From assembly GCA_964592365.1 (NCBI GenBank), contig CAZQDL010000001.1, positions 13,198 through 77,197 on the forward strand: a DNA stretch of 64,000 nt, in the 5' to 3' direction. The stretch is from an uncultured Candidatus Saccharibacteria bacterium. GTDB taxonomy: Bacteria; Patescibacteriota; Minisyncoccia; Phycocordibacterales; UBA1006. The notes beneath the pieces were generated by a model. It was not told the DNA's origin. It ran no database searches and saw nothing but the letters and a program-made list of their open reading frames with translations. This document shows positions 23,845 through 52,415 of this stretch, piece after piece; the stretch's first letter is position 1; every line of letters starts with the position of its first letter. A program made the translations under genes and the position numbers.

Positions 23845-26800
23845 TTAATTAAAAATATTCTCAAAAGCTCTTCGTTCGATGATTTCATTTATCACTGATT
23901 CATGACGAGTTATCAAAATAGTACTTTCATCTAAGAATGTGTATAGGAGAATAACATCACCTTCTCTTAGAGAATTTGCTTCTGCAGTATTTACTACGAA
24001 ACTTACAGAACCAGGCCCAAGGCTACCTAAGAATTCACCGTTTCCTTCAAGTGTACCATTAGCATTTACGGTATACCCCGATCCTAAATAATTATTCTCT
24101 CGAATTGTAGTATTTAATTGGTCTAGGGTATCAAGAGAAATGATACATTCATTTGGTTCAGCAATTTCAAGACCTTGATCTTCTTGATACTTGATAAGTG
24201 CATTACAAACTTCTCTGTCATAGATTCCATCAAATTCAGATATATCATACCCTTCGTTATACAGCACCATTTGAAGATTTCGTACCTCTTCATTGAAGGT
24301 TCCAAGACCCATTTGTTGAGTAAAGAAATCATTGATTGTTGCAGCCTCTCCACCAAATAGATTTCCAGCTCCTACTACCATTTGTTGAATTAAGGCTACA
24401 TCCTCTGCTGAAATAAATGTCTGATCTAGAGTTCCAGGTGTTCCTCCGTTGTTTCCAATGAATGACTGAAGTGCTTGTTGAGTAACAATATCCAATTCAC
24501 CAGTTACAGAAAGAGGATCAAGAAGTCCCATTTCAACAAGTGCTTGTTGAACAGATTTAATTCCCTCTACATCGTTATCCCCTGGATAGACATTCTTTCC
24601 AATAGGTAAATTGTTTCCAATGGTTACCCAAGTAACGTTATTATTTAATCCTAAAGCATCTTTTACAATAGCAATCAAATTAGCCAGTTCTTGAATAATT
24701 TCTGATTGCTGGATCTGTGGAGGGAGTGTCCTGATAATCTGTTCTAGATCTTGAAGAGCCCCAGCAGCAAATCTCAGCGTATCATCAGCAAGTACATCAG
24801 CATATGCGATTTGAAAAAATGCATCAGCTGCTTTTTCTAAACTATTTGCTAATCCTGATTGACCCAAAACTCTTACAATCCTTGAAATTATTCTTAACCT
24901 CGTTGCAGCTTGTGCCGCAACCTCCCTTATTTCACCGTTTAATCCACGGTTGAATTGATCGTTCAACTGTTCAGTCTCAAGAGCATCAAAACATACTTTT
25001 ACCGAAGGGTCGCTACTTTCAATTGGAAATTCTGTACCATCAGCGGTCACTCGATATCCGTTAATGATCTTGTTATTATTGTCAATACAATATCGTTTGT
25101 TTCTGGTAAGTGGTGAGATGCATTGTACACCACCACCCTGACGTGATATCTGTCTTGTATTTTCTATATTTACCTGTCTATCTTGTAAGTAGAAATCATC
25201 AAGACTTGAAGGTCCCTGATTCACTTGAGAACCATTCTGATCAAAACAAAGATTCTTTCCAGAAAGGTTTTGTAATCGAAGCAGATCAAGATACTGTGTA
25301 CAACTCTTTCTTCCTTCAAAATCTAAACTCACCTCTTCTGCCAAATTACACTGTACCCCAGGTTCACCTTCAAGATCATTTGAAACTACTCTATTTCCTT
25401 GCCTACATTCAATACGATTACACTGATATGGCTTGTAACAAATATCATAAGGTTCAACAGCTCTATCTTCAGGATTTATTCTATCTCCACTAACTGGATC
25501 AAAACAAATATCTGAAGTGTATGCAATATCACTAAACCCTAGAGAATTATTTACTGAAATAAGAGTATCGGTTCCTGTCAGCATTTGTTTACAAACATAA
25601 CTAGAATCATTTCCAACTTCTTGTGGTGTTTTTGGTTCACTCATTAGCCCAGTTTGTGGATCAAGTAAATCATCATAACAAGTTACGGTACTTGAAGGGG
25701 TTACTGTTCCTGGTAACTCATTTCCGGTTAGGACATCAATACATCGCTTAACCGCTTTGTAACACATAACTTGTCCAGCATCGTTGTTTATAGTCTCAGT
25801 GACAAAAGTTCCACCAACCTGTGCAAAAGCACGTTTTGCCATAAATGGTTTAGTAAGAAAATTAGATATTAATAGTGAAATCGTTTCACTAGGTTCGATA
25901 TCAACATCAGCATCGATAAATTCTTCTGTTTGATTTTCAAAGTCTTCAGGTAGTTCTTGATTAAACTCAGAACCGTCTGAACGAATAAAATCAAGAAGTC
26001 CCTTTTGATCATTTTCTCGAGGAACATAGCGTGAAACACGTACATTCTTGTTTTTAATAATATCATCTGAGAAACCATCTTGAATTAGTGATCGATTTGC
26101 AGCTTCATCTGGTAGATCAAGATAACTTGCAAGATCATCAATCATTGTTGGTTCCCATTGCTTCATACCAACGAAAGCTCTGTCATATGAAATTGCTTTA
26201 AGGATAACAAAGGGGTAATTCTTATCAGTGGTGTACACTCCATGCATAAAGTTGTTTTCAATATTGTTGTACAACAATTCAGGTGTTTTTGCCCCTGTCT
26301 TATCAAAAATCTCTTTAATCCCCATTCTCCTTAAATTCCCCATTTCATCTTTCTGAACATAGTAAATCTGAGATACTGAATCAGTATCATGATCTCTTTT
26401 AAGAAGAGTTCTAATTGCTTCATTAGCTTGAAAAGCTTCAATGCTAGTGGTATCAATACCCAAATCTTGGTCAGAATACACCAAAGAACGAACTCGTTCA
26501 TTCGTGATGAAAGTTACTTCATCCTTTGGCTGGAAAAAGGTGAGCCAAGTGACCACAGAAAGAACAAGGAGAATAATGCTTCCAATGAAATATTTTCCAT
26601 TTCTACTTGTGAAAGGTGAGTTTGCTTTCTTAAGTTCTTTTTCAAATCGAGCCTTTTGAATCAACTCTGACATGGTCTTAGGATCATTAGCCCCCATAGC
26701 TCGTGACATGTCTTGATAGTAGGTTGTTTGAATACCGAGATCTTTCTTTGGCTCCTCCACCTGTTCTTGTACATCTACTTCTGGAATTTCTTCTTGAGCT

Positions 26801-27042
26801 CCTAAATCACGTGCAATTTCTGCTTCAAGAGAAGCAACCGTCTGTTCACTGACTGGTAAATCTTGCACAGCATCAATGGGAAGTGAATCAGTAGGTTCAG
26901 ACTCTACATGTTTTGATGGTACAGAAGGAAATGGAATATCAGAATTCTGATTCAATTGAGAAAATTCATTAAAAAGATTCTCTAATTCATCTACATCATT
27001 CTTTGTACTAGGTTCATGATTATCATTTAAGGGAGTATTCAT
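23845..27042 (-). CDS. Large membrane-anchored surface protein with two peptidoglycan-binding-like domains
   Basis: TM segment at about aa 150-170. A Cys-rich central region. The C-terminal part has two PG_binding_1-like motifs (GIKSVQQALVEMGLLDPLSVTGELDIVTQQALQSF and VRNLQMVLYNEGYDISEFDGIYDREVCNALIKYQ). Confidence 0.5.
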   Translation of the reverse strand: MNTPLNDNHEPSTKNDVDELENLFNEFSQLNQNSDIPFPSVPSKHVESEPTDSLPIDAVQDLPVSEQTVASLEAEIARDLGAQEEIPEVDVQEQVEEPKKDLGIQTTYYQDMSRAMGANDPKTMSELIQKARFEKELKKANSPFTSRNGKYFIGSIILLVLSVVTWLTFFQPKDEVTFITNERVRSLVYSDQDLGIDTTSIEAFQANEAIRTLLKRDHDTDSVSQIYYVQKDEMGNLRRMGIKEIFDKTGAKTPELLYNNIENNFMHGVYTTDKNYPFVILKAISYDRAFVGMKQWEPTMIDDLASYLDLPDEAANRSLIQDGFSDDIIKNKNVRVSRYVPRENDQKGLLDFIRSDGSEFNQELPEDFENQTEEFIDADVDIEPSETISLLISNFLTKPFMAKRAFAQVGGTFVTETINNDAGQVMCYKAVKRCIDVLTGNELPGTVTPSSTVTCYDDLLDPQTGLMSEPKTPQEVGNDSSYVCKQMLTGTDTLISVNNSLGFSDIAYTSDICFDPVSGDRINPEDRAVEPYDICYKPYQCNRIECRQGNRVVSNDLEGEPGVQCNLAEEVSLDFEGRKSCTQYLDLLRLQNLSGKNLCFDQNGSQVNQGPSSLDDFYLQDRQVNIENTRQISRQGGGVQCISPLTRNKRYCIDNNNKIINGYRVTADGTEFPIESSDPSVKVCFDALETEQLNDQFNRGLNGEIREVAAQAATRLRIISRIVRVLGQSGLANSLEKAADAFFQIAYADVLADDTLRFAAGALQDLEQIIRTLPPQIQQSEIIQELANLIAIVKDALGLNNNVTWVTIGNNLPIGKNVYPGDNDVEGIKSVQQALVEMGLLDPLSVTGELDIVTQQALQSFIGNNGGTPGTLDQTFISAEDVALIQQMVVGAGNLFGGEAATINDFFTQQMGLGTFNEEVRNLQMVLYNEGYDISEFDGIYDREVCNALIKYQEDQGLEIAEPNECIISLDTLDQLNTTIRENNYLGSGYTVNANGTLEGNGEFLGSLGPGSVSFVVNTAEANSLREGDVILLYTFLDESTILITRHESVINEIIERRAFENIFN

Positions 27043-38545: not shown

Positions 38546-41077
38546 GTGTATACTATATATATGAAGAAATATTTTATATCCCTTGTGATCATTTCAGCCT
38601 TGGGCTTTTCTGTACAACCAAAAGAGGCTCAGGCTTTTGTAGTTTTTGAAAGTGGAACAAATCTATTTACAAACATTGCAACCACAGCTGAATCTATTTG
38701 GAATACCGCAGCTCAGGAAATTCTTCTGCCAGCGGTTGAAAGAATGATTGAACGAGAGCTTGAAAAAGTTGTTAACAAATCATTAAATCTTGGAGGGGAA
38801 TTACTGGTTACTGATTTGGATCAAGCACTACGTGGAACAGGTTATGCTGCTTTAGCAAATAGATTTAATAGTGCTAATAATTATTACTACCGAACTCTTT
38901 CAGAAAGTGGTATTTGTGCAAGAGACCAGGCTGGTTGTTCACTTAATCCAACAGAGCAGGCTGAACAAAATTATCGCCTCATGGAAGATGGATCGATAAA
39001 CTCAAAAAGAAGTGTTGCTTCAACTATTTCAAAAGTAGCTACAAAATCACTTTTCAGTAATGCTTTAGATAGGGTAATTAAAAGTGATCAAAAATTAATT
39101 AAGAATGAAGATTTTAATCAATCAAATTTTTGGGGAAATTATTTAGAAATTATCAACCCAGAAAGAACAGAGGTTGGAGTATCAGGAGTAGTAACGGGTA
39201 GTTTAAGTGCAGAAGTTACGACCTCTCGAGGGAATTTCTTACGTGACCTTCAAACTCCACAACGATTTCTAGATCAAAAGCGATGTATTGAGTATGAAGT
39301 AGATGACATTACGGGAGAACAGGTTTGTGTGAGGAATGTTACTCTTACTCCAGGAGCTCAAATTGCTGAGAAGGTAAACGAATCAATATTGAAAGATGAA
39401 CGTGTAGCAGGTAGTGCTGAGGGACTTGTTGGTATGCTTATCTCATCAGCAATTGGAAAGGTTACTGATGATTTGATTAGTAAAGGTATTGCTGGAATTA
39501 GTGGAAGACTAAGCGGAGGAAGTAACAATCAAGGGAATATTAATAATTCTGTATTTAACAGTTCAGGTTTAGGAAGATCTGAATTTGATGTCCTTGGAAA
39601 TTCTGTTGATAGTTTTCAAGATAATTCAACTAGGATTTATGATGATTTCCAAGTTGATGGATCTACAGGTGGGGGAGCTTCTATCGGTGGACCAGAAGAT
39701 GGTAACAGTGTTCAGATCACTATTGATTTAAGCGAGGTCATTGAAGAAAACATCCGTTTTGCTGAAGAAGAGCAATCATACTTTGATGAAATTCAATCAA
39801 TTAGAAATAGGAGTAAAGAAACAATCATAGCACTTGATCAGTGTCTGCCTTCTCCTCAATATGGCTGGGAGGAACGTTTCTCTGATATTTTTCAAACATC
39901 AGGAACCAGTGACTATAGTCTTTTGAATTCAATCGCTTTAAGTGAAACAAGACAAATGGTTAATGATCCATGGGTAAATATTCCAGGAGCTTCAGATATT
40001 AGACAATCAATTGATGGAGTTATCTCTGAGACAAAACAAGATCAAGCTCAGAACGCACAAAGAATCTCTGCTGTACGTGAAACTCTTTCAACTCTTCGGT
40101 TTATTAAAGATCAAGTAGTTTCAGATGCAGCTACTCTTGCTGCTTCAAATAGTAGCTTTCAAAATTTAGTGATGTTTGATGACCAATGGTCAAAACTAGG
40201 CGTGCCTGGACAAACAAATGCTTTTAATTCTGCAATAAGTAATAACTACTATTCACTTAAAACAGGTGAAACAGCTTCTTCTATCATCAATGAAAGAAAT
40301 AGCTTTGCTAGAGATATTGTTAAAACTAGATCATGGGACATCTGGAGAGAAAATACAGAGAAAACTAAAAAGAATGATTTGCGATATAGTTTCTTCGTAA
40401 TCCAAAACAAATTATCTAATGAAGAATTCGTAACTCGAGCACGTGTTTTGAAAAACCAAATTGGAAGTAAGTCTGAATTTTCAGAAAGCCTACTACAAGA
40501 TTGTTTTGTTTTCAGGGCATACAGCCTTGGAGCTAGCCAGGCAAATATTCAGCAGACGATAAATAGTAGTAACAACGTAGATGAATTGATTGCCAACTTT
40601 GATAAACTACTAGCACCATATCAAAATATTTCTCACCGTGGTTTCAAACAAGAGTTAACTTTCATTAATACAGATACTGCACGAGATGATGATGAGATTG
40701 GCGAATTCATCAATGATGAATATCAAAAGCAATTGCGTGGTGTTAGTTCGTTGTTCAAAACAACAACAATCACCGGAGCATTGCCAACTAGTATCCTAGG
40801 ATTTGCTAACGAATCAGATAAAGAAGAATACTTTGAAGAAAACTATCCTATTGATGATTTCAAAGATCCGATATCTTTCAACCAAATGAGTGTAAAAGAG
40901 ATGCTTCGTGCAGATAGATTTATCTCAACATATGGAAGAGCACGTGGAATTCGTGGTGTGTTATTCTGTAGAGTGAAAGGAGTATGGGATGCAGGAGCTG
41001 ATAACAGATCAATTTGTTTGCTTGATTGGTATACAACAAGTAATCTTGATTACAACGTTGCTTTTGCCGGAATATAA
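38546..41077 (+). CDS. Large secreted protein (843 aa), first gene of the T4SS-like locus
   Basis: Signal peptide MKKYFISLVIISALGFSVQPKEAQA. No catalytic motif was recognised. Confidence 0.5.
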   Translation: MYTIYMKKYFISLVIISALGFSVQPKEAQAFVVFESGTNLFTNIATTAESIWNTAAQEILLPAVERMIERELEKVVNKSLNLGGELLVTDLDQALRGTGYAALANRFNSANNYYYRTLSESGICARDQAGCSLNPTEQAEQNYRLMEDGSINSKRSVASTISKVATKSLFSNALDRVIKSDQKLIKNEDFNQSNFWGNYLEIINPERTEVGVSGVVTGSLSAEVTTSRGNFLRDLQTPQRFLDQKRCIEYEVDDITGEQVCVRNVTLTPGAQIAEKVNESILKDERVAGSAEGLVGMLISSAIGKVTDDLISKGIAGISGRLSGGSNNQGNINNSVFNSSGLGRSEFDVLGNSVDSFQDNSTRIYDDFQVDGSTGGGASIGGPEDGNSVQITIDLSEVIEENIRFAEEEQSYFDEIQSIRNRSKETIIALDQCLPSPQYGWEERFSDIFQTSGTSDYSLLNSIALSETRQMVNDPWVNIPGASDIRQSIDGVISETKQDQAQNAQRISAVRETLSTLRFIKDQVVSDAATLAASNSSFQNLVMFDDQWSKLGVPGQTNAFNSAISNNYYSLKTGETASSIINERNSFARDIVKTRSWDIWRENTEKTKKNDLRYSFFVIQNKLSNEEFVTRARVLKNQIGSKSEFSESLLQDCFVFRAYSLGASQANIQQTINSSNNVDELIANFDKLLAPYQNISHRGFKQELTFINTDTARDDDEIGEFINDEYQKQLRGVSSLFKTTTITGALPTSILGFANESDKEEYFEENYPIDDFKDPISFNQMSVKEMLRADRFISTYGRARGIRGVLFCRVKGVWDAGADNRSICLLDWYTTSNLDYNVAFAGI

Positions 41078-41097: not shown

Positions 41098-41139
41098 ATA
41101 TTCCATGACATTTTGAACCTCCTTCGCTATAATAGAAAC

Positions 41140-43257
41140 ATGAATAAACTAAAACATCTTCTTATTGTGTGTGCATTTGCTCTAAGCATGTTCATGCAAC
41201 CATTTTCTTTTTCTCAAGGGGAAGATCAAATAGCAATTATAACGGATATTAATTATTCTTATGCACAAGAAGTAGCCACAAGTAACGATGTATCTGAGGG
41301 TTTCCTTACTGTTGAATGTGATGGAATTGATTTAGGATGTTATTTTGCAAACGGTGTACTTTATTTTTTCCACCTTGTTTGGTATTCAACCACCCAAGTA
41401 CTAGCATTCATTGCAGGATTTACCCTTGATGTACTTTTATTCCACTCAATTAGCAGTGCTACATATCGAACTGGACTTATCGAAGCTGGTTGGGAGATTC
41501 TCAGAAATCTAACTAATATTGTTTTCATTTTCTCTTTACTATTTATCGCCTTTAAAATGGTTCTCTCTGGATCATCATCGATAAAAAAGGTGTTAATCAA
41601 AACTATATTAGTTGCTTTGGTAATTAATTTTAGTTTGTACATGAGTTACGTTATCATTGACTCATCAAATATTTTGGCAAATATTTTCTATCAGCGAATA
41701 GAAATTGATAATCAATCACGGACGACAAATGAATTCATCAATACTTTTTTCTCAGCACAGACAATGAAATCACCGTCTGCAGCATTGGTAAGTAAGTTTG
41801 AACCACAAGCCATCATTACGAAAGCAGGACCTGATTTGAACACAACTCAACGTTTCTTAGTAGTATTTAGTGCTGGTGGAATCAATATTCTAATGATATC
41901 TATCTTCTTAAGTATTATCCTCCTTTTCTTAGGAAGAACGGTAGGGTTAATGCTTTCTGTGATTCTTGCTCCTCTTGCTTTTGTAACCCTAGCAATACCT
42001 ACAAGTGATATGAGTAATATAAAGTGGATTGGTTTTAATTCATGGTTAAAGCAACTCATTACGTTGTCATTTATGGCACCTGTGTACCTATTCTTCTTAT
42101 ATTTGATAATAATATTTGCAAATAACGATGCACTCTTTAATTCTATTAACATTGCAGGGAATACAGGTACAGGAAGTACTAATGTTATTAATATTATCCT
42201 TGGAGTTATTCTTCCTTTCTCTTTGATTGCAATCCTTCTTACAACTGCTAAGAAAATTACCACAGACATGGCTGGTGATCTTGGAGGAAGAATTAGTGAG
42301 TATGCTTCAAAAGGACTCACTGGAGCTGCAGCCGTTGGACTTGGAGCTGCGACTATGGGAATTGCAGCAACTGGTGGTGCAGCAAGACTTCTTGGTAAAG
42401 GTGCTTCAAAAATAGGTATGGAAGGAACAGGTAAATTCCTAGAAGGAGCAGGTAAGTGGGGTCAAACTGCAAAATTTGATGCATCAAAAATTCCTGGTTT
42501 TGAAAATACTTTTGGAAAAAATACCTTTGCATCAAAAGTTGCTAAAGGTATTGGAAGTACAAGCTATTCAGATATTGATACTGGAGTAAGAGGAGCAGCT
42601 AACAAGGTAAGATCAGGTATTAGTGACTTTAATACCGGAAGGACTCCTGAGAGCGTTGCTCAATGGGAAAAAAATGTTCAGGATAGTAGAAATGCTAATA
42701 CTCAAAGGAGAGCTGATAATCAAGCAAGGGTGGCTAGTGACGATGCAAAAACTGAAAGAAATAAAATTGCCATCAATACAGATCCTTTTGGAACAATTAC
42801 TTATATGCCAGAAGGCGCGCGTGTACAAGACAAACTAGAAGAATACAGACAAAAACGTGCTGAGATGGATGAAGCAGCTGTTAAAAGAGAGAAGAAGGAT
42901 ATAGATGATGCAAAAGCAATACTCGAGGCAGAAATTCAGGTTCTTCAAAAAGAATCTAAGGGGTCAACAAACCCTGCTGAAATTGCAACGAAGAAACAGG
43001 CTATTGCCGATAAAAAGAAGAAAATTGAACAAATTGAACAGACATCTACTGAGGGAGTTATCAAACAACTTGAAAAAGTCATTAGTACAGCTGAAACTAA
43101 TGCTAAGGCACAGATGTTCATAGATGATAATTATAATAGAAATAATACTCAGGATTCAAACTTCACGATGTCAGGAGATAGAAGAAGAGAACGTGTCCGG
43201 AAACAAGCATCAGAATACGTTAAGAATGGAGGTAATAATTCTAAAGACAAGAAATAA
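41140..43257 (+). CDS. VirB6/TrbL-like (PrgH/TcpH-like) polytopic membrane protein with a charged coiled-coil C-terminal tail
   Basis: Signal peptide, then about 7 or more TM helices with a large extracytoplasmic loop. Gly/Ala-rich segment GLTGAAAVGLGAATMGIAATGGAARLLGKG. K/E-rich tail. Confidence 0.5.
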   Translation: MNKLKHLLIVCAFALSMFMQPFSFSQGEDQIAIITDINYSYAQEVATSNDVSEGFLTVECDGIDLGCYFANGVLYFFHLVWYSTTQVLAFIAGFTLDVLLFHSISSATYRTGLIEAGWEILRNLTNIVFIFSLLFIAFKMVLSGSSSIKKVLIKTILVALVINFSLYMSYVIIDSSNILANIFYQRIEIDNQSRTTNEFINTFFSAQTMKSPSAALVSKFEPQAIITKAGPDLNTTQRFLVVFSAGGINILMISIFLSIILLFLGRTVGLMLSVILAPLAFVTLAIPTSDMSNIKWIGFNSWLKQLITLSFMAPVYLFFLYLIIIFANNDALFNSINIAGNTGTGSTNVINIILGVILPFSLIAILLTTAKKITTDMAGDLGGRISEYASKGLTGAAAVGLGAATMGIAATGGAARLLGKGASKIGMEGTGKFLEGAGKWGQTAKFDASKIPGFENTFGKNTFASKVAKGIGSTSYSDIDTGVRGAANKVRSGISDFNTGRTPESVAQWEKNVQDSRNANTQRRADNQARVASDDAKTERNKIAINTDPFGTITYMPEGARVQDKLEEYRQKRAEMDEAAVKREKKDIDDAKAILEAEIQVLQKESKGSTNPAEIATKKQAIADKKKKIEQIEQTSTEGVIKQLEKVISTAETNAKAQMFIDDNYNRNNTQDSNFTMSGDRRRERVRKQASEYVKNGGNNSKDKK

Positions 43258-43974: not shown

Positions 43975-44619
43975 TTATGTATTCAACTCTGGAATATTTC
44001 GATGTCCTTCACCTGGGTTAAACATGTTGTAGAATACTTCGATAGCTTGTTGGGTGTTTAGCTGTTCTGAACGTACACCAAAACGTGATAGCCCACCCTT
44101 TACGATAGCTACACGCTGTTCAAGCTGACTTCGCTGTTCTTCGAATCTTTGAGTCTCTTCTTGAAATGACTTTTTCTTTGTAGAAAGTAAGTCCTTAAAT
44201 ATACTACTGGTGCTTTGTTGTGCAGTGAATGCCGCTCCTGAATATGGAACAACTACATAAAATCGTTTAGACATGATATTTACTGAGTCAGTAAACCATC
44301 TGATAAATTCAATATATTCTCTAGTTTGTAATCGAAGAAGCTCTTCTGTTTGTTGTCCAATTCTTTGCTCAAGAGTCATTAGATATGGCTTTATATCATA
44401 TCTACGTGATCCAACTGCAATTTGAACAGGGAAATCAAGTGAGTTGAGGAATCCTTGGAATTGCATAATAACAGCTTGCTGTTCATCTTCTGATTTTAAG
44501 GCAATGTTAATAGCCGAAGCAAGTAATATTGCTCTTAAACTTCCATCTTGAAGTACTACAATACCGTCACGAATTTCTTTGATAGGTATAAAATCTTGTG
44601 TTCTTGGTCCGTTTGCCAT
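43975..44619 (-). CDS. VirB4 N-terminal-domain-like protein (soluble, 214 aa)
   Basis: The N-terminal segment FIPIKEIRDGIVVLQDGSLRAILLASAINIALKSEDEQ resembles the conserved start of VirB4/TrbE ATPases (compare Agrobacterium VirB4 LPYIGHLSDHIVLLEDGSIMSIARIDGVAFELEE). It lies directly downstream of the VirB3-like gene. Confidence 0.45.
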   Translation of the reverse strand: MANGPRTQDFIPIKEIRDGIVVLQDGSLRAILLASAINIALKSEDEQQAVIMQFQGFLNSLDFPVQIAVGSRRYDIKPYLMTLEQRIGQQTEELLRLQTREYIEFIRWFTDSVNIMSKRFYVVVPYSGAAFTAQQSTSSIFKDLLSTKKKSFQEETQRFEEQRSQLEQRVAIVKGGLSRFGVRSEQLNTQQAIEVFYNMFNPGEGHRNIPELNT

Positions 44620-44672
44620 ATGAGTACCTCCAGTATACCACTATTAAAAAAATCTCTCATCAAATGAGAGAT

Positions 44673-45086
44673 TTATTCTTCTGAATCAAGAATATCTAAA
44701 CTCCAAGCAAGGTCAGAAACTCTCTGTTGGTGAATTCGCTGTTGAGTATCTGTAAATAGCTGAGGAGTTTCTGGTAGTTCTTTTATTTCAACTGAATTGC
44801 TCTTTTCTTCTTTTCTTCTCCATAGGTAGAATCTTTCTGAAAAAGCATAGATGAGGTAGGATTCAACCATTTTAATAAAAGGTCGTCCGTTTGGTTTGAT
44901 AAACACTAAAGCTAGGGTAAATGCTGCAATAGGTAAACCAAGTATTACCACAACAAAGGTAGGTAGAAGTCGGTAGATCAAGAAGATAAGTCCACCTCCA
45001 CCAACTAAATAAATAGATTGTTTGAAGGTGAAGGGACCAAATAGCTTATCCTCTACATTAATAAATTGGGGAACTTCAAATCTCAT
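44673..45086 (-). CDS. PrgI/VirB3-like small membrane protein
   Basis: 137 aa. N-terminal FGPFTFKQSIYLVGGGG followed by two TM helices, as in Gram-positive PrgI-family VirB3 analogues. Confidence 0.5.
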   Translation of the reverse strand: MRFEVPQFINVEDKLFGPFTFKQSIYLVGGGGLIFLIYRLLPTFVVVILGLPIAAFTLALVFIKPNGRPFIKMVESYLIYAFSERFYLWRRKEEKSNSVEIKELPETPQLFTDTQQRIHQQRVSDLAWSLDILDSEE

Positions 45087-45122
45087 ACTTTTAGTATATC
45101 TCTATAGTTTTTTTCTGTCATC

Positions 45123-46139
45123 TTAAGATGAAAAAGATATGCTAATATTTTCTGAAGCTGATTGTAAAATATTATTTATACTGTCTAGATTTACCCCAAT
45201 ATCAACATTTCCAGATTGTCCTCCTGATGAAATAAATAGTTCATTCTGTCTTCCAAAATCTTGAGGAGCTTGATTTTCATTATTGATAGACCACTGTACG
45301 AAAAGATCAGTAAAATTTCTTTGTATAGTACTCATGTGTAAAGGATGGAAAGAAAATTTTACCTGAGATCCATTTATTTCTGAACGAGTATTTAATGCTC
45401 TTTGAGTAAGAATTCTTTCCTTTTCATCAATTTCGTAGAATAAGATTTTTGGTAAGAAGGTATTTGTTGAAATATCAATAGTGTTACGCGCAAAAGAGTT
45501 TTCTCTTCTGTCATTTGCCGTCACGCTAATCTTTTCAGTAAAGTTTAGCGCCCCTGCTTCTATCGTATATGATTGTCTTCCAAAACCAGATGCCTTACTA
45601 TCATTAGTGTAATTATTTTCCCAATAGTAAATTAAATTTTTAGCATCAGTTGGTGAAATTAACTGAGTTTGAGGAATTGCTGTTATCTTTATCGTTGATT
45701 GAGGTAAGGGAAGTACCTTTCCTTTATAAAAAGGAGGGATATATCCATCTTCAACTTCCCAAAGAAGATCTATTTCTGAAGGTGAAAATCTAAGTTCTTT
45801 TCTAAAAACCTGATTACCAATTTCAATAACAGCAGTAAGGTTAGTTACACTACCTAAAGAGCCTGTTCTAAAAACAAATTCCTTTGCTCCATAATCTGCG
45901 CTTTTTCTCTCACCATTTTCAAACCAAGAAATATAATAGTTATTAAGATTAAAGCTATAACTATTAAGAATTACTCGAACTTCTTCATCAACTCCAGGAA
46001 TAAGGGGGATTGTTTCAACTAAAATATCGTTTTCTGAATAAAGTGATACCCCTTGGGCCTTCACTTCTTTGGTAACAAGAAAAAAACTGATTATCAGAAA
46101 AAAGATTAGAGATATAGTCAGTAGAGGTTTTCTTTTCAT
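45123..46139 (-). CDS. Secreted or bitopic protein (338 aa), possible T4SS accessory component
   Basis: N-terminal signal/anchor sequence. No known motif. In an operon with the VirB3-like and VirB4N-like genes. Confidence 0.4.
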   Translation of the reverse strand: MKRKPLLTISLIFFLIISFFLVTKEVKAQGVSLYSENDILVETIPLIPGVDEEVRVILNSYSFNLNNYYISWFENGERKSADYGAKEFVFRTGSLGSVTNLTAVIEIGNQVFRKELRFSPSEIDLLWEVEDGYIPPFYKGKVLPLPQSTIKITAIPQTQLISPTDAKNLIYYWENNYTNDSKASGFGRQSYTIEAGALNFTEKISVTANDRRENSFARNTIDISTNTFLPKILFYEIDEKERILTQRALNTRSEINGSQVKFSFHPLHMSTIQRNFTDLFVQWSINNENQAPQDFGRQNELFISSGGQSGNVDIGVNLDSINNILQSASENISISFSS

Positions 46140-46219: not shown

Positions 46220-48376
46220 ATGAAAAAGTTTTTATTATTTTCACTCCTTACTATTATCTTCTCTTTTGGTGTTCAATATAACAATGAAGCTATTGCTCAA
46301 GAAGAATGTTCTGTTACTTCAGCTTCGTTTAGTGAAATTACGGGGTGGACAAGTAGCAACCGGTTTGAAGGAAACTTTACAAACCTAACCATTAGTACTT
46401 CAGGTGACTGTTCTGCTGGATTAAGCATTAACTTAAAAAAAGTAGATGATAGAGGAAAACACTTGCCGGCTGTTATTAATAAAATGCCAGCAAAACTTGT
46501 ACCTGGTCCTATATCTAAGAAAATAATTGCCAAGTTTAAGCTTTATGAAGATACCTGTTATGGATACAATAATGAATCTACTCGCGGCCTTAATTGGGGA
46601 TATGACTGTGTTACATATATTGAAATAACTCATAAAGATAAGGTAATATTTTCACCTAAAAATGTAACAGGATTCAATGCTGACTACATTCGAGATACCA
46701 AAGATTCAATCGTAGAGATGAGAAATCAAGGAATTCTACTTGGAAACTGTACCTTAGATTGTGCATACGGTACTCAAGATGAGAAAGGTGCTCATAACTG
46801 GATTTTTTGGGGGACGTTTGATGGAAATGGCTCAATTGGAGATTCAAATGCCCTTCAAAGTAAATGTAAAATAACCGACGAAGATGTTTCTTTCAGCGGG
46901 ATGAAGAATAGAGTAATAACAAATGCTTCTCCTGTACTAAAAATAAATACTAAAGACTGTATTGGTGTTAAATTAAGTGTAAGCCTTATGGAAGGAAGTG
47001 GTTACATAGATATTGAAATTAATGATGACGTTACGAGGACAACGATTGATGTTATCCCAAAAGATGAAGTTGTTACTTTTTTATATGAAGCAGGGAATGA
47101 GGAGTGTAATATTTTAGGTAATCCTGATTGTCAGATATATCTTTACATACAATACAATGGAAATGTCTATAGTAATGAGGAACTTCTTACCGGTCACATA
47201 TACAAATATGCTGAGTCAGAAACATATTCTTCATACTTAGATGATGGAATCCTTCTTGGAGATTGTGCTTATGTTGCTCCCACTAATCAATTTAATTTTG
47301 TATCAAATTGTTTAGCTGGAAAAAGTGATTGGACCCTAAAGGGAGTAGATGGAGTTGAAACATCAGCAACAGGATCTCCTGCACAAGAAGTTGCCATTAC
47401 ACAAAAATTTGATAGAAATCACCCCTGTCACAATGGAAAATCTGGAGATGAAGAGGCATATCTCCGAGATTGTTATGAACTCCTTGCTCCCATTCCTGGA
47501 ATCTCAAGTACATATACTGATGGATCAGGATCAACAAGAAGTACTGGTTTTGAAGTAACAGAAGATGGACGTCAGTTTGTTAAAAACATTGGTCAATTAC
47601 AAATTGGTGATTATATAAATACTTTAGTAAGGATTGCATTAGGAGTACTTATTGTTCTTTCAATTATCATGATAATAATTGCAGGAGTTGAGTACATGGT
47701 TCAAGAAAGTATGTTTGGAAAATCTGCTGCGAAATCAAGAATTGCTAATGCATTAAGTGGTCTAATTGTTGGATTAAGTATCTATTTAATCCTTTCAACA
47801 ATTAACCCACAACTTCTTGAAGTTAACTTTTCACCACCAGTACAAGAACTACTGGTTATCGGAGATGGAGGGGTTGAGCCAGTTGATCTTCCTTCTTTTG
47901 ATATTCCAGGAAACAGTTTGTGTAGTAGCTTTACTACTATTAACCAACCGGGGGCTATTCGCGCTAAAAAATTCAGTGTATGTAGCACGATAGCACCTAA
48001 GATTAATAATTTACTGAAAGATGCAAAGGCCGATGGTATTATTCTTAGTGCTTACGGGGCAAGAGAAACAAAAAAACAGATCGAATTACGAGTTAAAAAC
48101 TGTGGGGGTACTGCTCAGGTATATAATCCAAAAGCTACTTGTAAACCTCCAACAGCTCTCCCAGGTCAATCTATGCATGAAAGTGGATTAGCTTTAGATT
48201 TTATTTGTGTTGATGGAAACAAAGAAGGAACTGTTAATGTACATGAAGGAAATACAAATGGAACTAAAAAGGAGTGGACAAGGGGATGCTATGAATGGAT
48301 CAAGAAAAATGCATCTAAATATGGACTGAAGGGTCTCAAATCAGAAAATTGGCACTGGTCAACAACAGGAAGATAA
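46220..48376 (+). CDS. Surface protein with an internal TM hairpin and a C-terminal M15 (VanY/D-Ala-D-Ala carboxypeptidase-like) peptidoglycan peptidase domain
   Basis: Signal peptide. Two TM helices at about aa 465-525. C-terminal SAYGAR...QSMHESGLALDF...ENWHW matches the LAS/M15 motifs (SxHxxGxAxD and a terminal His). Confidence 0.6.
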   Translation: MKKFLLFSLLTIIFSFGVQYNNEAIAQEECSVTSASFSEITGWTSSNRFEGNFTNLTISTSGDCSAGLSINLKKVDDRGKHLPAVINKMPAKLVPGPISKKIIAKFKLYEDTCYGYNNESTRGLNWGYDCVTYIEITHKDKVIFSPKNVTGFNADYIRDTKDSIVEMRNQGILLGNCTLDCAYGTQDEKGAHNWIFWGTFDGNGSIGDSNALQSKCKITDEDVSFSGMKNRVITNASPVLKINTKDCIGVKLSVSLMEGSGYIDIEINDDVTRTTIDVIPKDEVVTFLYEAGNEECNILGNPDCQIYLYIQYNGNVYSNEELLTGHIYKYAESETYSSYLDDGILLGDCAYVAPTNQFNFVSNCLAGKSDWTLKGVDGVETSATGSPAQEVAITQKFDRNHPCHNGKSGDEEAYLRDCYELLAPIPGISSTYTDGSGSTRSTGFEVTEDGRQFVKNIGQLQIGDYINTLVRIALGVLIVLSIIMIIIAGVEYMVQESMFGKSAAKSRIANALSGLIVGLSIYLILSTINPQLLEVNFSPPVQELLVIGDGGVEPVDLPSFDIPGNSLCSSFTTINQPGAIRAKKFSVCSTIAPKINNLLKDAKADGIILSAYGARETKKQIELRVKNCGGTAQVYNPKATCKPPTALPGQSMHESGLALDFICVDGNKEGTVNVHEGNTNGTKKEWTRGCYEWIKKNASKYGLKGLKSENWHWSTTGR

Positions 48377-48379
48377 TAT

Positions 48380-50035
48380 ATGAAAATCAATATCAAAAAA
48401 GTAATACTCTTTATCATCATTAGTACCGCACTCATTTTAGGAGGGGTATGGCTTTTTGGATATTTTCAAAATGGTAATCAAGGTGAAGAAACTTCAGGTG
48501 GTTTAAGAAATTTATTTCCATTCGGAGAAATCTTTTCTGGATCAAGGAATGAAGAAAATAGTCAAAACATCATTCTTGATGAAAATGGTAATCCTGTTCA
48601 ACAAGTTGATGGAGAAGAAGATGTTGTTAATGCAACAAGACCTCAACTTCAACTTATCACAAATAAACCAACAGGTGGTTTTGTAGCCTTAACAAGAATT
48701 ACACAGGAAGAAGTACTCACTGAAACAACCTTGCCTGACGGAACAACAAGTCAGCAATCATCTATTGCAGATATTGAGCAATCTCTCATTCGATATAGTG
48801 ATATTAATTCTGGTACGATATATGAAACAGCTCTCGGTGGTGAAAATGCATTCAATGAAGTAAAGGTGATTGATAATGTGATACCAAATGCTGAACACTC
48901 ATTTTTCTCAGCTAATGGTAACCATGTAGCCTTTCAATATTGGGATGAGGGAGATAGAGAAATAGAAACATATCTAGCAACGATAAGTCTTCTCTCATAC
49001 CAAGCTGAGCCTTGTGGATATAGTTTTGAAGGAACTCTAGTGCTTGGCGAAGAAAGTGAGTTTGCACTCAATCTCCATCGTTTCCTTAACTTAGTTCCAG
49101 AAACACAATTAGCAAGCTCAGGGATAAATAGTTTAGGAAATGAATCTCCTTTAGTAACACAGTCTACTTTCGATGCTATATCACGCTTCCAGACAGTTCA
49201 TAATCTTTCTGTTGATGGTTCATTAGGTCCTCAGACACGTTCAAAAATGATAGAAGTATGTAATCTTCAAGAAGAACAAAAGGCTAAGGAACGTTTTGAA
49301 AATTCAGATACTAAATATGAAATCTTTGGATCTTTTCTTCCAGAAGGAATAGTAAGTTTAAGTATGCACCCTCTTGAAAATAAACTTTTCTTTTTAGAAA
49401 AGAGTGCTTCAGGGATATTAGGGAATATATACGATCTAATGTCACAAGAACGGAAAACCGTATTTACATCACCATTCACTGAATGGTTAAGCTATTGGAA
49501 TATTGGTAGAAATGTTGAACTTGTAACCAAACCAAGTTATGGAGTTGAAGGGTATAGTTATAACTTGAATATTGATAATGGTGATTACAAAAAATCATTT
49601 AGAGAACGAAAAGGTCTTATGGTATTACCAAGTCCTGATGATAAGAAATTATTAGTATTTGATACTGAACAAGGTAGACCGAGTCTATCTATCTATGAAA
49701 GAGAATTAAATAGATTTCTCCCTCTATCCATTCAAACCTTTATAGATAAGTGTGTATGGTCAACTACTAGTGAATATCTCTTCTGTGGCGTTCCTGATTC
49801 GTTTGGATATGGTGATGTATACCCTGATACGTGGTATCAAGGACTTGAAACATACAGTGATAGTCTATGGAGAATTGACGCAACAACTCTTGAAGAAGAA
49901 GTTCTAAGCGACATGGTTAGTGATTATTCATTAAGCATTGATATTGAAAAAATTAATATTGATAGAAAAAATGAATTTCTGTTCTTTATTGATAAGAATT
50001 CTGAATTTCTTTGGAGTTATCGTATAGAAGAATAA
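48380..50035 (+). CDS. Membrane-anchored protein with a PG_binding_1-like domain and a C-terminal beta-rich domain
   Basis: N-terminal TM helix. TQSTFDAISRFQTVHNLSVDGSLGPQTRSKM fits the peptidoglycan-binding domain pattern. It is translationally coupled to the upstream M15 gene (4-nt gap). Confidence 0.5.
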   Translation: MKINIKKVILFIIISTALILGGVWLFGYFQNGNQGEETSGGLRNLFPFGEIFSGSRNEENSQNIILDENGNPVQQVDGEEDVVNATRPQLQLITNKPTGGFVALTRITQEEVLTETTLPDGTTSQQSSIADIEQSLIRYSDINSGTIYETALGGENAFNEVKVIDNVIPNAEHSFFSANGNHVAFQYWDEGDREIETYLATISLLSYQAEPCGYSFEGTLVLGEESEFALNLHRFLNLVPETQLASSGINSLGNESPLVTQSTFDAISRFQTVHNLSVDGSLGPQTRSKMIEVCNLQEEQKAKERFENSDTKYEIFGSFLPEGIVSLSMHPLENKLFFLEKSASGILGNIYDLMSQERKTVFTSPFTEWLSYWNIGRNVELVTKPSYGVEGYSYNLNIDNGDYKKSFRERKGLMVLPSPDDKKLLVFDTEQGRPSLSIYERELNRFLPLSIQTFIDKCVWSTTSEYLFCGVPDSFGYGDVYPDTWYQGLETYSDSLWRIDATTLEEEVLSDMVSDYSLSIDIEKINIDRKNEFLFFIDKNSEFLWSYRIEE

Positions 50036-50036
50036 T

Positions 50037-50064
50037 AAATACCACGTTTGTGGTATTTATTTTG
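50037..50064 (+). terminator. Intrinsic terminator
   Basis: aaataccac-gtttg-tggtatttattttg. Confidence 0.55.
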
Positions 50065-50097: not shown

Positions 50098-51945
50098 ATG
50101 TCATTGATTTCAGATCTACTTGAAACAAATAAAAATAAGGGAGTTCAAATAAAGCAAACTGCTGTTCCTGTAATGCCTGGTGATATCTACAAAACAGCAA
50201 CACTAGAACTTCAGGATGTTTTAGCTCCAGCAGCACTTGAAATTGGCCCTAAATCAATAAAAATTGCAGGAAAAACATCACGTACTTTTTTTGTTATGTC
50301 ATATCCTCGTTTTCTAACTGATGGATGGCTTGCTCCTATTGTTAATCTGGATAAGGTTTTTGATGTTGGAATTCATATTCACCCTATTGCAACAGAAAAA
50401 ATACTTAATGAATTTAAGAAAAAAGTTGCTGAAGTTCAATCACAAATCAATGATAGGGAATCAAAAGGCTTGGTTCGTGATCCAATTTTAGATACTGCAT
50501 ATCAAGACCTTGAACAACTGCGAGATGCTCTACAGCAAGCTCAAGAAAAAATATTCTCTGTTGGTTTATATATCACTATCTATGCTGAAAGTGATGATGA
50601 ATTGTATAAGACAGAGAATGAAATTAGATCTCTACTTGAATCAAAATTGGTATATTTAAAACCAGCATTGTTTCAACAAGTAGAAGGTTTCTTATCTGTT
50701 GCACCATTAGGGGATGATCGTTTGGAAGTTCACACAAAGTTAAATACAGGACCTGTATCATCCTTCTTTCCATTTATTTCCTCAGAACTTACTGACAACA
50801 AGGGAATTCTCTATGGTATTAATAGACATAATTCTGGATTAGTTATTTTTGATAGGTATTCATTACCTAACTACAACTCTGTGATATTTGCTACTTCAGG
50901 AGCAGGAAAGTCATATGCAACGAAGTTAGAGATTCTTCGAACTATGATGTTTGATACTGAAGTTATTGTTATTGACCCTGAGCGTGAGTATGAATACTTA
51001 GCAGAAGCTGTTGGAGGACGTTACTTTAACATTTCTCTTTCTTCAGAACATCACATTAACCCTTTTGATGTTCCTGAACCTCTTGATGATGAAGATCCAT
51101 CAGATGTGTTAAGAACACATATTATTCACTTAGTTGGTCTCTTTAGAATTATGTTAGGAGGATTATCTCCTGAAGAAGATTCTATTATCGATAGAGCTAT
51201 TACTGAAACCTATGCACTTAAAGACATTAGCGTTTCAAGTAACTACAAGGGAATTGAACCTCCACTTATGTCAGATTTTGAGATGGTTCTCTCTTCAATG
51301 GATGGAAGTGATTCACTTCTTGCAAGACTTACTAAATATACTCATGGAACATGGTCTGGTTTTATTAACAAACCATCAAATGTTGATATTAACAGGAAAC
51401 TGGTTGTATTCTCAATTAGAGATATGGAAGATGATCTTAAGCCAGCTGCTATGTATATCATCACCCAATTCATCTGGAATGCAGTTAGAAAGAACATCAA
51501 GAAAAGGTTGTTGGTAGTTGATGAGGCTTGGTGGATGATGAAGTCAGATGATACTGCTTCATTCCTATTTATGATTGCAAAACGTGGAAGAAAATATTTC
51601 TTAGGTCTTGCAACGATAACTCAAGACGTTGGTGACTTCATCAAATCACGATATGGAGTACCTATTATCACTAACAGCTCAATGCAATTACTTCTCAAGC
51701 AATCGCCCAGTGCTATTGATAATCTTCAGGAGATATTCAGATTAACTGATGAAGAGAAATATCTCCTTATGGAATCTGGAGTAGGTGAAGGAATATTCTT
51801 TGCAGGTATGAAGCATGTGGCTATTAAAATAATTGCATCATACACCGAAGATCAAATTATCACCTCTGATCCTGCTCAAGTACTTTCAATTAAAAAGGCA
51901 AAACAAGATTTGAGAGATGCAAATGCTCAAGGCTATGCAAATTAA
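50098..51945 (+). CDS. virB4: VirB4/TrbE/CagE-family conjugation-type ATPase (Gram-positive short form)
   Basis: Walker A ATSGAGKSYATK, Walker B LLVVDEAWWMM, and the conserved N-terminal RTFFVMSYPRFL region. Confidence 0.8.
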   Translation: MSLISDLLETNKNKGVQIKQTAVPVMPGDIYKTATLELQDVLAPAALEIGPKSIKIAGKTSRTFFVMSYPRFLTDGWLAPIVNLDKVFDVGIHIHPIATEKILNEFKKKVAEVQSQINDRESKGLVRDPILDTAYQDLEQLRDALQQAQEKIFSVGLYITIYAESDDELYKTENEIRSLLESKLVYLKPALFQQVEGFLSVAPLGDDRLEVHTKLNTGPVSSFFPFISSELTDNKGILYGINRHNSGLVIFDRYSLPNYNSVIFATSGAGKSYATKLEILRTMMFDTEVIVIDPEREYEYLAEAVGGRYFNISLSSEHHINPFDVPEPLDDEDPSDVLRTHIIHLVGLFRIMLGGLSPEEDSIIDRAITETYALKDISVSSNYKGIEPPLMSDFEMVLSSMDGSDSLLARLTKYTHGTWSGFINKPSNVDINRKLVVFSIRDMEDDLKPAAMYIITQFIWNAVRKNIKKRLLVVDEAWWMMKSDDTASFLFMIAKRGRKYFLGLATITQDVGDFIKSRYGVPIITNSSMQLLLKQSPSAIDNLQEIFRLTDEEKYLLMESGVGEGIFFAGMKHVAIKIIASYTEDQIITSDPAQVLSIKKAKQDLRDANAQGYAN

Positions 51946-51968
51946 AAGCTTCTGTATATCAGAAGCTT
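51945..51968. terminator. Bidirectional terminator (virB4 / jag)
   Basis: aaagcttct-gtatatc-agaagcttt. Confidence 0.65.
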
Positions 51969-52415
51969 TTATTCTTTAATCATTTTCAAACGTCTATCTA
52001 TTCCTTGTCCTTCTGAAACAGTACTCACTCCAGGTATTTGAGCAGTAAGGTGGTGAACGAGCATTCTTTTAAAAGAGCTTAATCTTCCAAATTCGTATGG
52101 TTTACCAAATTGTAAAACTCTTTTAGAGGCTATAGCTGTTATCTCCTTTATATATTCAATTTCTTTACATGTTTCTCCATTAATATCGATAAGATATTCT
52201 TCTTCAAGTGAAAGGGAATTGATAATATGTTTCACTATGTAGGAAAAGGCATCAAGGAATTCCTTCTTATTCTCTCCTTTGTATACTGATGATGGAATAG
52301 TGAAGGACACAACAGAGAAACCAAGTTCCTTTTCATGGATACACTCAACCATATTAATATTCAATCTAAAATATGAGAGAAATTTACTAAGTTCTTTTTC
52401 AAGGATACTGTTCAT
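51969..52415 (-). CDS. Jag/KhpB-like RNA-binding protein (R3H domain)
   Basis: C-terminal R3H-like LSSFKRMLVHHLTAQIPGVSTVSEGQG. Positioned downstream of yidC as in the canonical operon. The start was chosen at MNSILE to avoid overlapping yidC. Confidence 0.55.
   Translation of the reverse strand: MNSILEKELSKFLSYFRLNINMVECIHEKELGFSVVSFTIPSSVYKGENKKEFLDAFSYIVKHIINSLSLEEEYLIDINGETCKEIEYIKEITAIASKRVLQFGKPYEFGRLSSFKRMLVHHLTAQIPGVSTVSEGQGIDRRLKMIKE

Follow-up and report, generated by a model that had tools for sequence, protein, structure and literature searches.

VirB1-type hydrolases such as PrgK of pCF10, TraG of pIP501, CwlT of ICEBs1 and TcpG are encoded inside type IV secretion system (T4SS) loci, lie outside the cytoplasm on a membrane tether, and are expected to open the wall of the cell that produces them. 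The T4SSs of Patescibacteria are related to the MPF-FATA class, lie near dnaA, and have TrsD, PrgI and VirB2-like pilins, but they usually lack a relaxase and most of them lack VirB1 (Quinonero-Coronel et al. 2025, PMC12102498). According to the same survey, pilus biogenesis in these systems seems to be independent of VirB1, whose role other enzymes may fill. They are also the first T4SSs shown to be essential for the growth of their owner (PMC10633639; PMC12857230). Here we describe the T4SS locus in 64,000 nucleotides (nt) of DNA from an uncultured Candidatus Saccharibacteria bacterium (GenBank assembly GCA_964592365.1, contig CAZQDL010000001.1, positions 13,198 to 77,197; hereafter the window), and in particular a gene whose product of 718 amino acids (aa) joins a predicted VirB2-like pilin module to a zinc peptidase of MEROPS family M15B. 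With moderate confidence, we propose that this protein is a pilin-tethered wall-remodelling enzyme that does the job of VirB1 in a T4SS of Paceibacteria (Patescibacteria, the Candidate Phyla Radiation, CPR).

The 718-aa protein shares with the VirB1-type hydrolases its place inside a T4SS locus, its predicted extracytoplasmic position and membrane tether, and its expected action on the producer's wall, and some orthologues of its gene carry the VirB1-type folds SLT and NlpC/P60. Unlike those hydrolases, it has an M15B zinc peptidase as its catalytic domain, and its anchor is a pilin module instead of a plain transmembrane (TM) segment. TagX, from Acinetobacter's type VI secretion system (T6SS), also has two TM segments and a C-terminal zinc peptidase of the LAS/VanY superfamily and is also encoded in a secretion cluster; it is an L,D-endopeptidase that faces the wall and is essential for T6SS biogenesis (PMC5061870), which makes it a near precedent in function. 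TagX differs, however, in that its TM segments are not those of a pilin, it serves the T6SS of a diderm, and its catalytic domain is pfam13539 (Peptidase_M15_4), whereas the window protein has PF02557 and sits in a T4SS; among the orthologues of our gene only one, in locus L013, has a domain of the pfam13539 type. ChiX of Serratia looks like a further secretion-linked wall hydrolase.

Individual parts of the protein also have described relatives. The VanY and LdcB enzymes (MEROPS M15B) differ from the window domain in that the latter is fused to a pilin, has five cysteines of its own, and occurs in a secretion context rather than in vancomycin resistance or wall recycling. The VirB2/TrbC-like pilins of Patescibacteria (PF18895), among them the essential array of Southlakia epibionticum, share with our protein the whole module–signal peptide, YxLLAP, two helices, basic loop and TINP–as well as the type of locus, near virB4 and dnaA; but those described are small (about 100-270 aa) and often arrayed, whereas the window pilin has 718 aa, is the sole pilin open reading frame (ORF), and carries an ectodomain and an enzyme. 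A conserved N-terminal carrier whose C-terminal catalytic cassette is replaced abruptly also recalls the polymorphic toxins, from which the fusion differs in having no co-varying immunity gene and in that all of its recognised cassettes act on peptidoglycan. We found no mention of VanY, M15 or a pilin-hydrolase fusion in the open-access papers on Patescibacteria T4SSs that we searched, and open-access searches for PF18895, for VirB2 together with VanY, and for Paceibacteria together with pilin and hydrolase gave nothing relevant. Wall hydrolases linked to a T4SS are known as such; what is new here is the M15 catalytic family, the fusion to a pilin, and the behaviour of the enzyme as a cassette.

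Architecture of the fusion protein and its partner

The gene occupies positions 46220-48376 on the plus strand and is followed on the same strand by an ORF for a protein of 551 aa at 48380-50035. Its TAA stop codon (48374-48376) is separated from the ATG of the second ORF (48380) by a 3-nt spacer, and spacers of 1-3 nt between these two genes recur among relatives. Both ORFs, and their tight coupling, are as described in an earlier note on this DNA that had been made from the letters and an ORF list. Read from its N-terminus, the 718-aa protein has first a signal peptide and an ectodomain of about 390 aa that is rich in cysteine and beta strands, then the pilin module and, joined to it by about 25 aa of linker, the VanY domain. 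The signal peptide is of the Sec type (aa 1-26; 46220..46297, plus strand), with a hydrophobic N-terminus, a helix at 3-15 in the structural model and an AxA cleavage site (...EAIA|QE), and the homologues begin with a similar N-terminal signal region.

The segment from aa 418 to 537 (47471..47830, plus strand) reads, by its motifs from YELLAPIPG to TINPxLL, as a complete VirB2-like T4SS pilin module. It begins with CYELLAPIPG and continues with a helix at 462-494, a basic loop (K501, K505 and R507), a second helix at 498-528, and STINPQLLEVNF. Short pilins have the same layout: the signal peptide is cleaved directly before (Y)ELLAPIP(G), and a helix, a basic loop, a second helix, TINPxLL and a short tail come next. 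A profile of the core region (aa 396-540) retrieves 81 proteins, most of them 100-270 aa long and most with a PF18895 domain; two also match PF04956 (TrbC/VirB2), and a few, from Patescibacteria or Minisyncoccia, bear the name 'pilin'. In the reverse direction, a hidden Markov model (HMM) of these 81 short Patescibacteria pilins gives the 718-aa protein a score of 106 bits (E = 6e-32), and a search of the 64-kb window with the short-pilin HMM found no second pilin ORF. The Pfam family T4SS_pilin (PF18895) scores 16.6 bits over aa 461-527, below its cut-off of 26.6, and reaches 25-34 bits in the orthologues. In one related locus, from a member of the Giovannonibacteria (L024), a plain pilin of 192 aa lies at the syntenic position; the 718-aa gene therefore holds the pilin position of the system and is not an extra gene. 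The protein has the signal peptide, the two hydrophobic helices and the short basic loop of a pilin, but not the small size, with 718 aa compared to about 100-270 aa in plain pilins. The earlier note had described this part as a membrane hairpin that precedes the peptidase: the two helices are there, but the hairpin is not a plain anchor, and its pilin identity had been missed.

K501 and K505 of the loop are nearly invariant, and the second helix is followed by an acidic segment. The protein has 20 cysteines, compared to none in the cytoplasmic T4SS proteins. Because of these features and the signal peptide, we infer that both appended domains are extracellular and that the loop between the helices is cytoplasmic. 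The N-terminal appendage (aa 27-417; 46298..47470, plus strand) is the large ectodomain that the earlier note had proposed: 14 of the cysteines lie in it, and in the AlphaFold2 (AF2) model beta strands run across 31-380 with a predicted local distance difference test (pLDDT) mostly of 75-92. We do not assign it to a family, because Foldseek with the whole model returned only weak Fab-like matches (tandem immunoglobulin (Ig) domains), with E >= 2e-3 and TM-scores of about 0.26-0.31 by target length. Its length is highly variable, and among relatives the number of residues ahead of YxLLAP ranges from 38 to 631. On the other side of the module, a flexible acidic linker (aa 538-565; 47831..47914, plus strand; pLDDT < 50 at aa 540-550) leads to the enzyme, and the spacing from TINP, after the second TM helix, to the SxH of the active site is constant, at 121-126 aa, throughout the family.

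The C-terminal domain (aa 566-718; 47915..48376, plus strand, including the stop codon) is the M15B peptidase, of VanY/LdcB type. The M15 motifs from which the earlier note had recognised it are real: SAYGAR at 610-615, QSMHESGLALDF at 650-661 and ENWHW at 709-713 align to the R / H-x6-D / E-x2-H positions of VanYB and BaLdcB, and the H-x6-D and E-x2-H spacings are the same as in those enzymes. Pfam VanY (PF02557) matches aa 588-714 with 34.9 bits (cut-off 25; E = 1.5e-8; profile positions 5-128 of 132) and is the sole catalytic Pfam match of the protein, in which no SLT or CHAP/NlpC-P60 domain was found. A phmmer search with the C-terminal 179 aa hit VanYB (structures 5hnm, 5zhf and 6a6a) with E about 1e-4, and LdcB weakly. 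With a profile made from 93 members of the family, the matches were VanYB (5e-15), BsLdcB (4e-13), BaLdcB (1e-10), SpLdcB (3e-9), VanXYg (2e-4) and Ply500 (7e-4), and the scores for VanYB and LdcB are close (58.8 and 52.3 bits). The AF2 model of the 718-aa protein has a mean pLDDT of 82, rising to 91-98 over the peptidase domain, which has the LAS / Hedgehog-DD-peptidase fold.

His153, Asp160 and His207 bind the zinc in SpLdcB, where Glu204 and Arg120 stand beside the nucleophilic water (PMC4087270). By alignment to BaLdcB and VanYB, residues R615, S651, H653, D660, E709 and H712 of the window protein correspond to Arg120, Ser151, His153, Asp160, Glu204 and His207 of SpLdcB (residues as in PMC4087270). 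These six residues, and also A658, W711 and W713, are invariant in 149 of 149 aligned representative fusions. As judged from these alignments, the peptidase active site is intact and under strong purifying selection. Neither of the outcomes by which the earlier note would have been refuted, a lack of profile matches or motifs that fail to map to ligands, was observed. Overall identity to VanY and LdcB is about 25%, and the five cysteines of the domain (C568, C588, C641, C663 and C690) are nearly invariant within the family.

The 551-aa partner is, as the earlier note had it, a protein with a PG_binding_1 motif and a beta-rich domain. PG_binding_1 (PF01471) scores 26.9 bits at aa 244-290 (Pfam cut-off 23), and the AF2 model (pLDDT 88) consists of a TM helix at 5-30 that serves as the anchor, a disordered stalk at 33-84, and a 7-bladed beta-propeller built from residues 90-204 and 313-548. 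The propeller is interrupted by the PG_binding_1 insert (227-308), a helical bundle with helices at 227-236, 261-273 and 284-308. The partner has 67 homologues: some 35 have the full length (534-552 aa), and the match of about 30 shorter ones covers the C-terminal 42-49% of the query. We rejected the idea that the propeller is itself an enzyme, because it matches only generic folds of the WD40 type, at about 10% identity; the second protein is a non-enzymatic propeller scaffold.

Distribution of the fusion and exchange of its C-terminal enzyme

A word-indexed search, which found 8 full-length homologues, had suggested that the fusion is rare. This was overturned by an exhaustive phmmer search with aa 455-718 against 1.84 billion representative proteins, which gave 190 matches at E <= 1e-30, of which the best 150 all span the hairpin and the VanY domain and end at the C-terminus of the protein. 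The pilin-VanY fusion is therefore not rare, with at least 150 clusters at 50% identity. The best 150 have lengths of 278-927 aa (median 457), and the difference lies in the N-terminal ectodomain. We looked up four distant pilin-VanY genes (306, 331, 819 and 927 aa), and all four sit in the same type of T4SS locus, three of them with a PG_binding_1 protein downstream.

By tblastn of the proteins of the window locus against 27 related loci, from metagenome-assembled genomes (MAGs) of Candidatus Paceibacterota, Nomurabacteria, Campbellbacteria and Magasanikbacteria, we found a conserved gene order: g843 and g714 (for proteins of 843 and 714 aa), g218, PrgI, TrsD, (VirB4), g338 (338 aa), the pilin fusion, the propeller protein, (VirB4), jag, yidC, rnpA and dnaA. 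Most of this order is present in 18 of the related loci (L001-L008, L010-L015, L018, L019, L024 and L025). Within the locus the rate of divergence varies greatly–between the window and L001, identity is 90% for VirB4, 79% for DnaA, 77% for TrsD, 59% for PrgI and g338, 46% for the propeller protein and 44% for g714, and it is lowest, at 33-35%, for g843, g218 and the pilin fusion (35%). The orientation of PrgI, TrsD and g338 switches among close relatives (43975-46139 compared with L001, L003, L005-L007, L011 and L012): the window has all three on the minus strand, L001 and L003 have g338 on the plus strand, and in L005-L007 the plus strand carries all three genes. Such changes are small inversions within the T4SS locus. 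Three of the contigs are filed as MAGs from other groups, namely Crocinitomicaceae (L012), Flavobacteriaceae (L014) and Gammaproteobacteria (L020). VirB4 identity to the window is 88% for L012 and 76% for L014, and L020 matched in the pilin gene only; this taxonomic filing is probably due to binning contamination.

The C-terminal enzyme, by comparison of these loci, behaves as an exchangeable cassette. VanY occupies the position in the window and in L001 (protein P0003), L005, L006, L008, L009 and L010; NlpC/P60 is found there in L003 (P0004), P0005 and L007; SLT in P0006 (a second copy in L003), P0007 and L026; YkuD in L012; and Peptidase_M15_4 in L013. In the remaining loci the C-terminal domain is unrecognised. 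P0003 (VanY) and P0004 (NlpC/P60) have 85-92% identity in most 40-aa windows up to about aa 520, and 12-25% beyond. At the DNA level, L001 and L003 are collinear with 79% identity until the codons just past LLEVNFSPK, and similarity returns 9 nt ahead of the next gene; in between, a 469-bp VanY segment in L001 stands opposite a 604-bp NlpC/P60 segment in L003. The downstream gene encodes the same propeller protein whatever the cassette, with 75% DNA identity between L001 and L003 compared to 79% in the flanks. We rejected it as a candidate immunity gene, because it does not co-vary with the cassette.

In L003 an extra pilin-SLT gene (P0006; 13814-15553 of that locus) lies between the propeller gene and virB4, beside the pilin-NlpC/P60 gene. 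These two paralogues, P0004 and P0006, are 85-95% identical in the pilin core and have unrelated cargo at both the N- and the C-terminus, a pattern that suggests concerted evolution of the core. The L026 gene (11012-12928) encodes a protein of 638 aa with an N-terminal GDSL esterase, the pilin module and a C-terminal SLT domain, so that enzymes stand on either side of the pilin; VirB4 was not found within the 22 kb of this locus. In L029 (16497-17459) and L031 (12115-13089), a stand-alone TseH-like (PF25218) or SLT protein is encoded beside virB4 or the propeller gene, with a pilin-VanY gene also present. Several wall enzymes can coexist in one T4SS locus.

Roles considered for the fusion protein

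If the 718-aa protein does the work of VirB1, as we propose, its Sec signal peptide would export the variable, disulfide-rich and beta-rich ectodomain, and the pilin module would be the part that is recognised by the T4SS (VirB4/TrsD, PrgI and the VirB6-like protein); the peptidase would therefore be brought exactly to the site at which a channel or pilus has to pass through the wall of the producer. At this site it would cut or trim the stem peptides of the producer's peptidoglycan, in place of the stand-alone VirB1-type hydrolases (SLT, CHAP/NlpC-P60), and the propeller with its peptidoglycan-binding insert would probably position or restrain it on the wall. We infer that the peptidase is a functional analogue of VirB1. 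Such a role for an M15 peptidase, which the earlier note had put forward, is strengthened by the orthologous genes that carry NlpC/P60 or SLT instead of VanY at the same position. For Paceibacteria, the locus thus suggests an answer to what fills the role of VirB1, namely that the wall enzyme and the pilin are one polypeptide, and it presents the pilin module as a carrier of large cargo on both of its termini. This bears on the question whether any pili are made by the machines of Patescibacteria, and on the way in which an epibiont handles two cell walls. The system also offers experimental handles: a soluble zinc peptidase of 150 aa, active-site mutants, natural swaps among VanY, NlpC/P60, SLT and YkuD, and a peptidoglycan-binding propeller partner.

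Several points weigh against this proposal. Characterised VanY/LdcB (M15B) enzymes are carboxypeptidases (PMC4087270), which trim stem peptides and leave the cross-links, so a VanY domain alone might not open a hole; nor can the bond that is cleaved be read from the sequence, the profile scores for VanYB and LdcB being similar. The orthologue in L012 has the fold of a YkuD transpeptidase, which points to remodelling or attachment rather than lysis, and the stand-alone SLT or TseH-like gene in some pilin-VanY loci means that the fusion is not always the sole hydrolase. The PF18895 match of the window protein is under the cut-off of that family (16.6 compared to 26.6 bits), and whether pilins polymerise in Patescibacteria T4SSs is still an open question (PMC12857230). 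Finally, the very fast divergence of the fusion (35% identity where VirB4 has 90%) and the exchange of cassettes fit a role directed toward another organism.

That last point also speaks for an alternative that we regard as possible but unlikely, in which a T4SS pilus or other surface structure would display the fusion, perhaps at its tip. The ectodomain would bind the wall of a host cell, these bacteria being thought to live on other microbes, and the enzyme would cut that wall and so provide a path for uptake or transfer. On this view, the exchangeable C-terminal enzymes would be cassettes of host range or of an arms race. The replacement of the cassette between near-identical carriers (P0003 and P0004) is in keeping with this, as are the paralogues in one genome with pilin cores 85-95% identical and unrelated cargo at both ends, the much faster divergence of the envelope-exposed parts than of the cytoplasmic parts, and a variable, beta-rich ectodomain with weak Ig-like matches. 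Both termini of conjugative pilins are thought to face the exterior of the filament, which makes such a display topologically possible. The T4SS and its pilin array are essential for the epibiotic growth of a Saccharibacterium (PMC10633639), and a pilus conduit to the host has been speculated on in a review (PMC12857230). The enzyme is, however, tethered to the surface of its producer, whose own wall is the nearest substrate, and cargo of ~60 kDa per subunit may clash with helical packing in a pilus. A cognate immunity gene was not found, as the gene that follows is kept whatever the cassette (75% compared to 79% DNA identity), and no pilus has been seen in these organisms. A more specific form of the idea, which we consider less probable again, makes the fusion a true polymerising or tip pilin, so that a filament bearing adhesin-like domains and interchangeable wall-degrading enzymes breaches the host wall to set up a conduit. 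Were this so, the swapping of cassettes would track the wall chemistry of the host, and epibiotic life would depend on the conduit.

We also considered, and find improbable, that the 718-aa product is a precursor polyprotein cut at the borders of the pilin module (near CYELLAPIPG and after LLEVNF) into a small pilin and separate ectodomain and peptidase parts, the fusion merely securing co-expression and stoichiometry. The motifs at these borders (C418-G427, N536 and F537) are invariant among close homologues, and in short pilins YELLAPIP directly follows the signal-peptidase site, but N536 and F537 are not kept across the wider family. There is precedent for such processing, as certain known VirB2/TrbC pilins lose residues from both ends by trimming. 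TagX is active only in a shorter form (PMC5061870). Pfam scans of the locus, however, revealed no recognisable protease gene, and the constant 121-126 aa between the second TM helix and the active site suggest a constrained tether rather than a disposable junction. A housekeeping carboxypeptidase that trims pentapeptides or tetrapeptides in wall maturation, with the hairpin a mere anchor and the T4SS position meaningless, is very unlikely: the carboxypeptidase activity of the characterised M15B enzymes VanY and LdcB (PMC4087270), the NCBI name of one relative ('D-alanyl-D-alanine carboxypeptidase family protein') and a class A penicillin-binding protein (PBP) encoded near the locus in the window are in its favour, but the hairpin has the whole of a pilin module, with motifs that are specific to pilins, the gene sits where L024 has a plain pilin of 192 aa, VirB4, PrgI and TrsD are syntenic with it in all loci examined, the four distant ones among them, and lytic NlpC/P60 and SLT domains can take the place of the VanY domain.

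The T4SS locus and its surroundings

The linkage to a T4SS that the earlier note had assumed is correct, but the system is not a conjugative Gram-positive element: it is a chromosomal Patescibacteria T4SS next to oriC. The propeller gene is followed, 62 nt downstream, by a gene for a VirB4-like T4SS ATPase of 615 aa (50098..51945, plus strand), representing the C-terminal ATPase part, which matches NCBIfam conju_CD1110 with 373.7 bits (cut-off 325) and Pfam P-loop_TraG with 93.5 bits. On the other side of the pilin fusion, and on the minus strand, are a TrsD-like protein of 214 aa that resembles the N-terminal part of VirB4 (43975..44619), the VirB3-like membrane protein PrgI (44673..45086; Pfam PrgI 39.3 bits, cut-off 27), and g338 (45123..46139), which encodes a secreted or anchored protein of 338 aa with no Pfam match or family and is syntenic in almost all related loci. 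The matches of the TrsD-like protein to the N-terminal parts of NCBIfam VirB4_plasma, CD1110 and TrsD (E = 4e-9 to 4e-7) are all below the cut-offs, and its counterparts in relatives are annotated as TraC-like (PF26593). VirB4 is thus divided in the window between a minus-strand gene (43975-44619) and a plus-strand gene (50098-51945) about 5.5 kb away, and this split fits the TrsD observation of PMC12102498.

The conserved locus starts with g843 (38546..41077, plus strand), for a secreted protein of 843 aa with a signal peptide and no family, which is syntenic with 26-35% identity to its relatives. It is followed by g714 (41113..43257, plus strand), for a syntenic polytopic membrane protein of 714 aa with ~6-8 hydrophobic segments and no Pfam match; by topology and position only, it is a VirB6-like candidate. 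For g843, g714, g218 and g338, Pfam gave nothing usable at E <= 1. The locus is flanked on one side by ppa and a XerC/D-type recombinase, and on the other by jag, yidC, rnpA, dnaA, dnaN, ruvC and the class A PBP. The ORFs scanned, which were all those of >= 90 aa in the stretch 30-62 kb and, in 1-30 kb, 10 of the 18 of >= 150 aa, revealed neither a relaxase nor a coupling protein. For this reason, and because its flanks are oriC housekeeping genes, we rejected the possibility that the locus is a conjugative element; it matches the Patescibacteria T4SSs described in PMC12102498.

The G+C content of the window is about 34%. Scans for promoters and terminators were uninformative, with fewer promoter-like sites than in shuffled sequences, and Rfam and tRNA scans found three tRNAs only, distant from the locus. 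An AT-rich palindrome with a 12-bp stem (50034-50061) lies between the propeller gene and virB4, and a second hairpin (51943-51971) directly follows virB4. Elsewhere in the window, a protein of 1065 aa (23845-27042, minus strand) has a PG_binding_1 domain (39 bits, aa 917-959) and no further recognised domain. A protein of 626 aa (8328-10208, plus strand) has at its end a domain of the Por_Secre_tail family (PF18962, 61 bits), the C-terminal sorting signal of the type IX secretion system (T9SS) of Bacteroidota, which is unexpected in a monoderm Paceibacteria-like genome.

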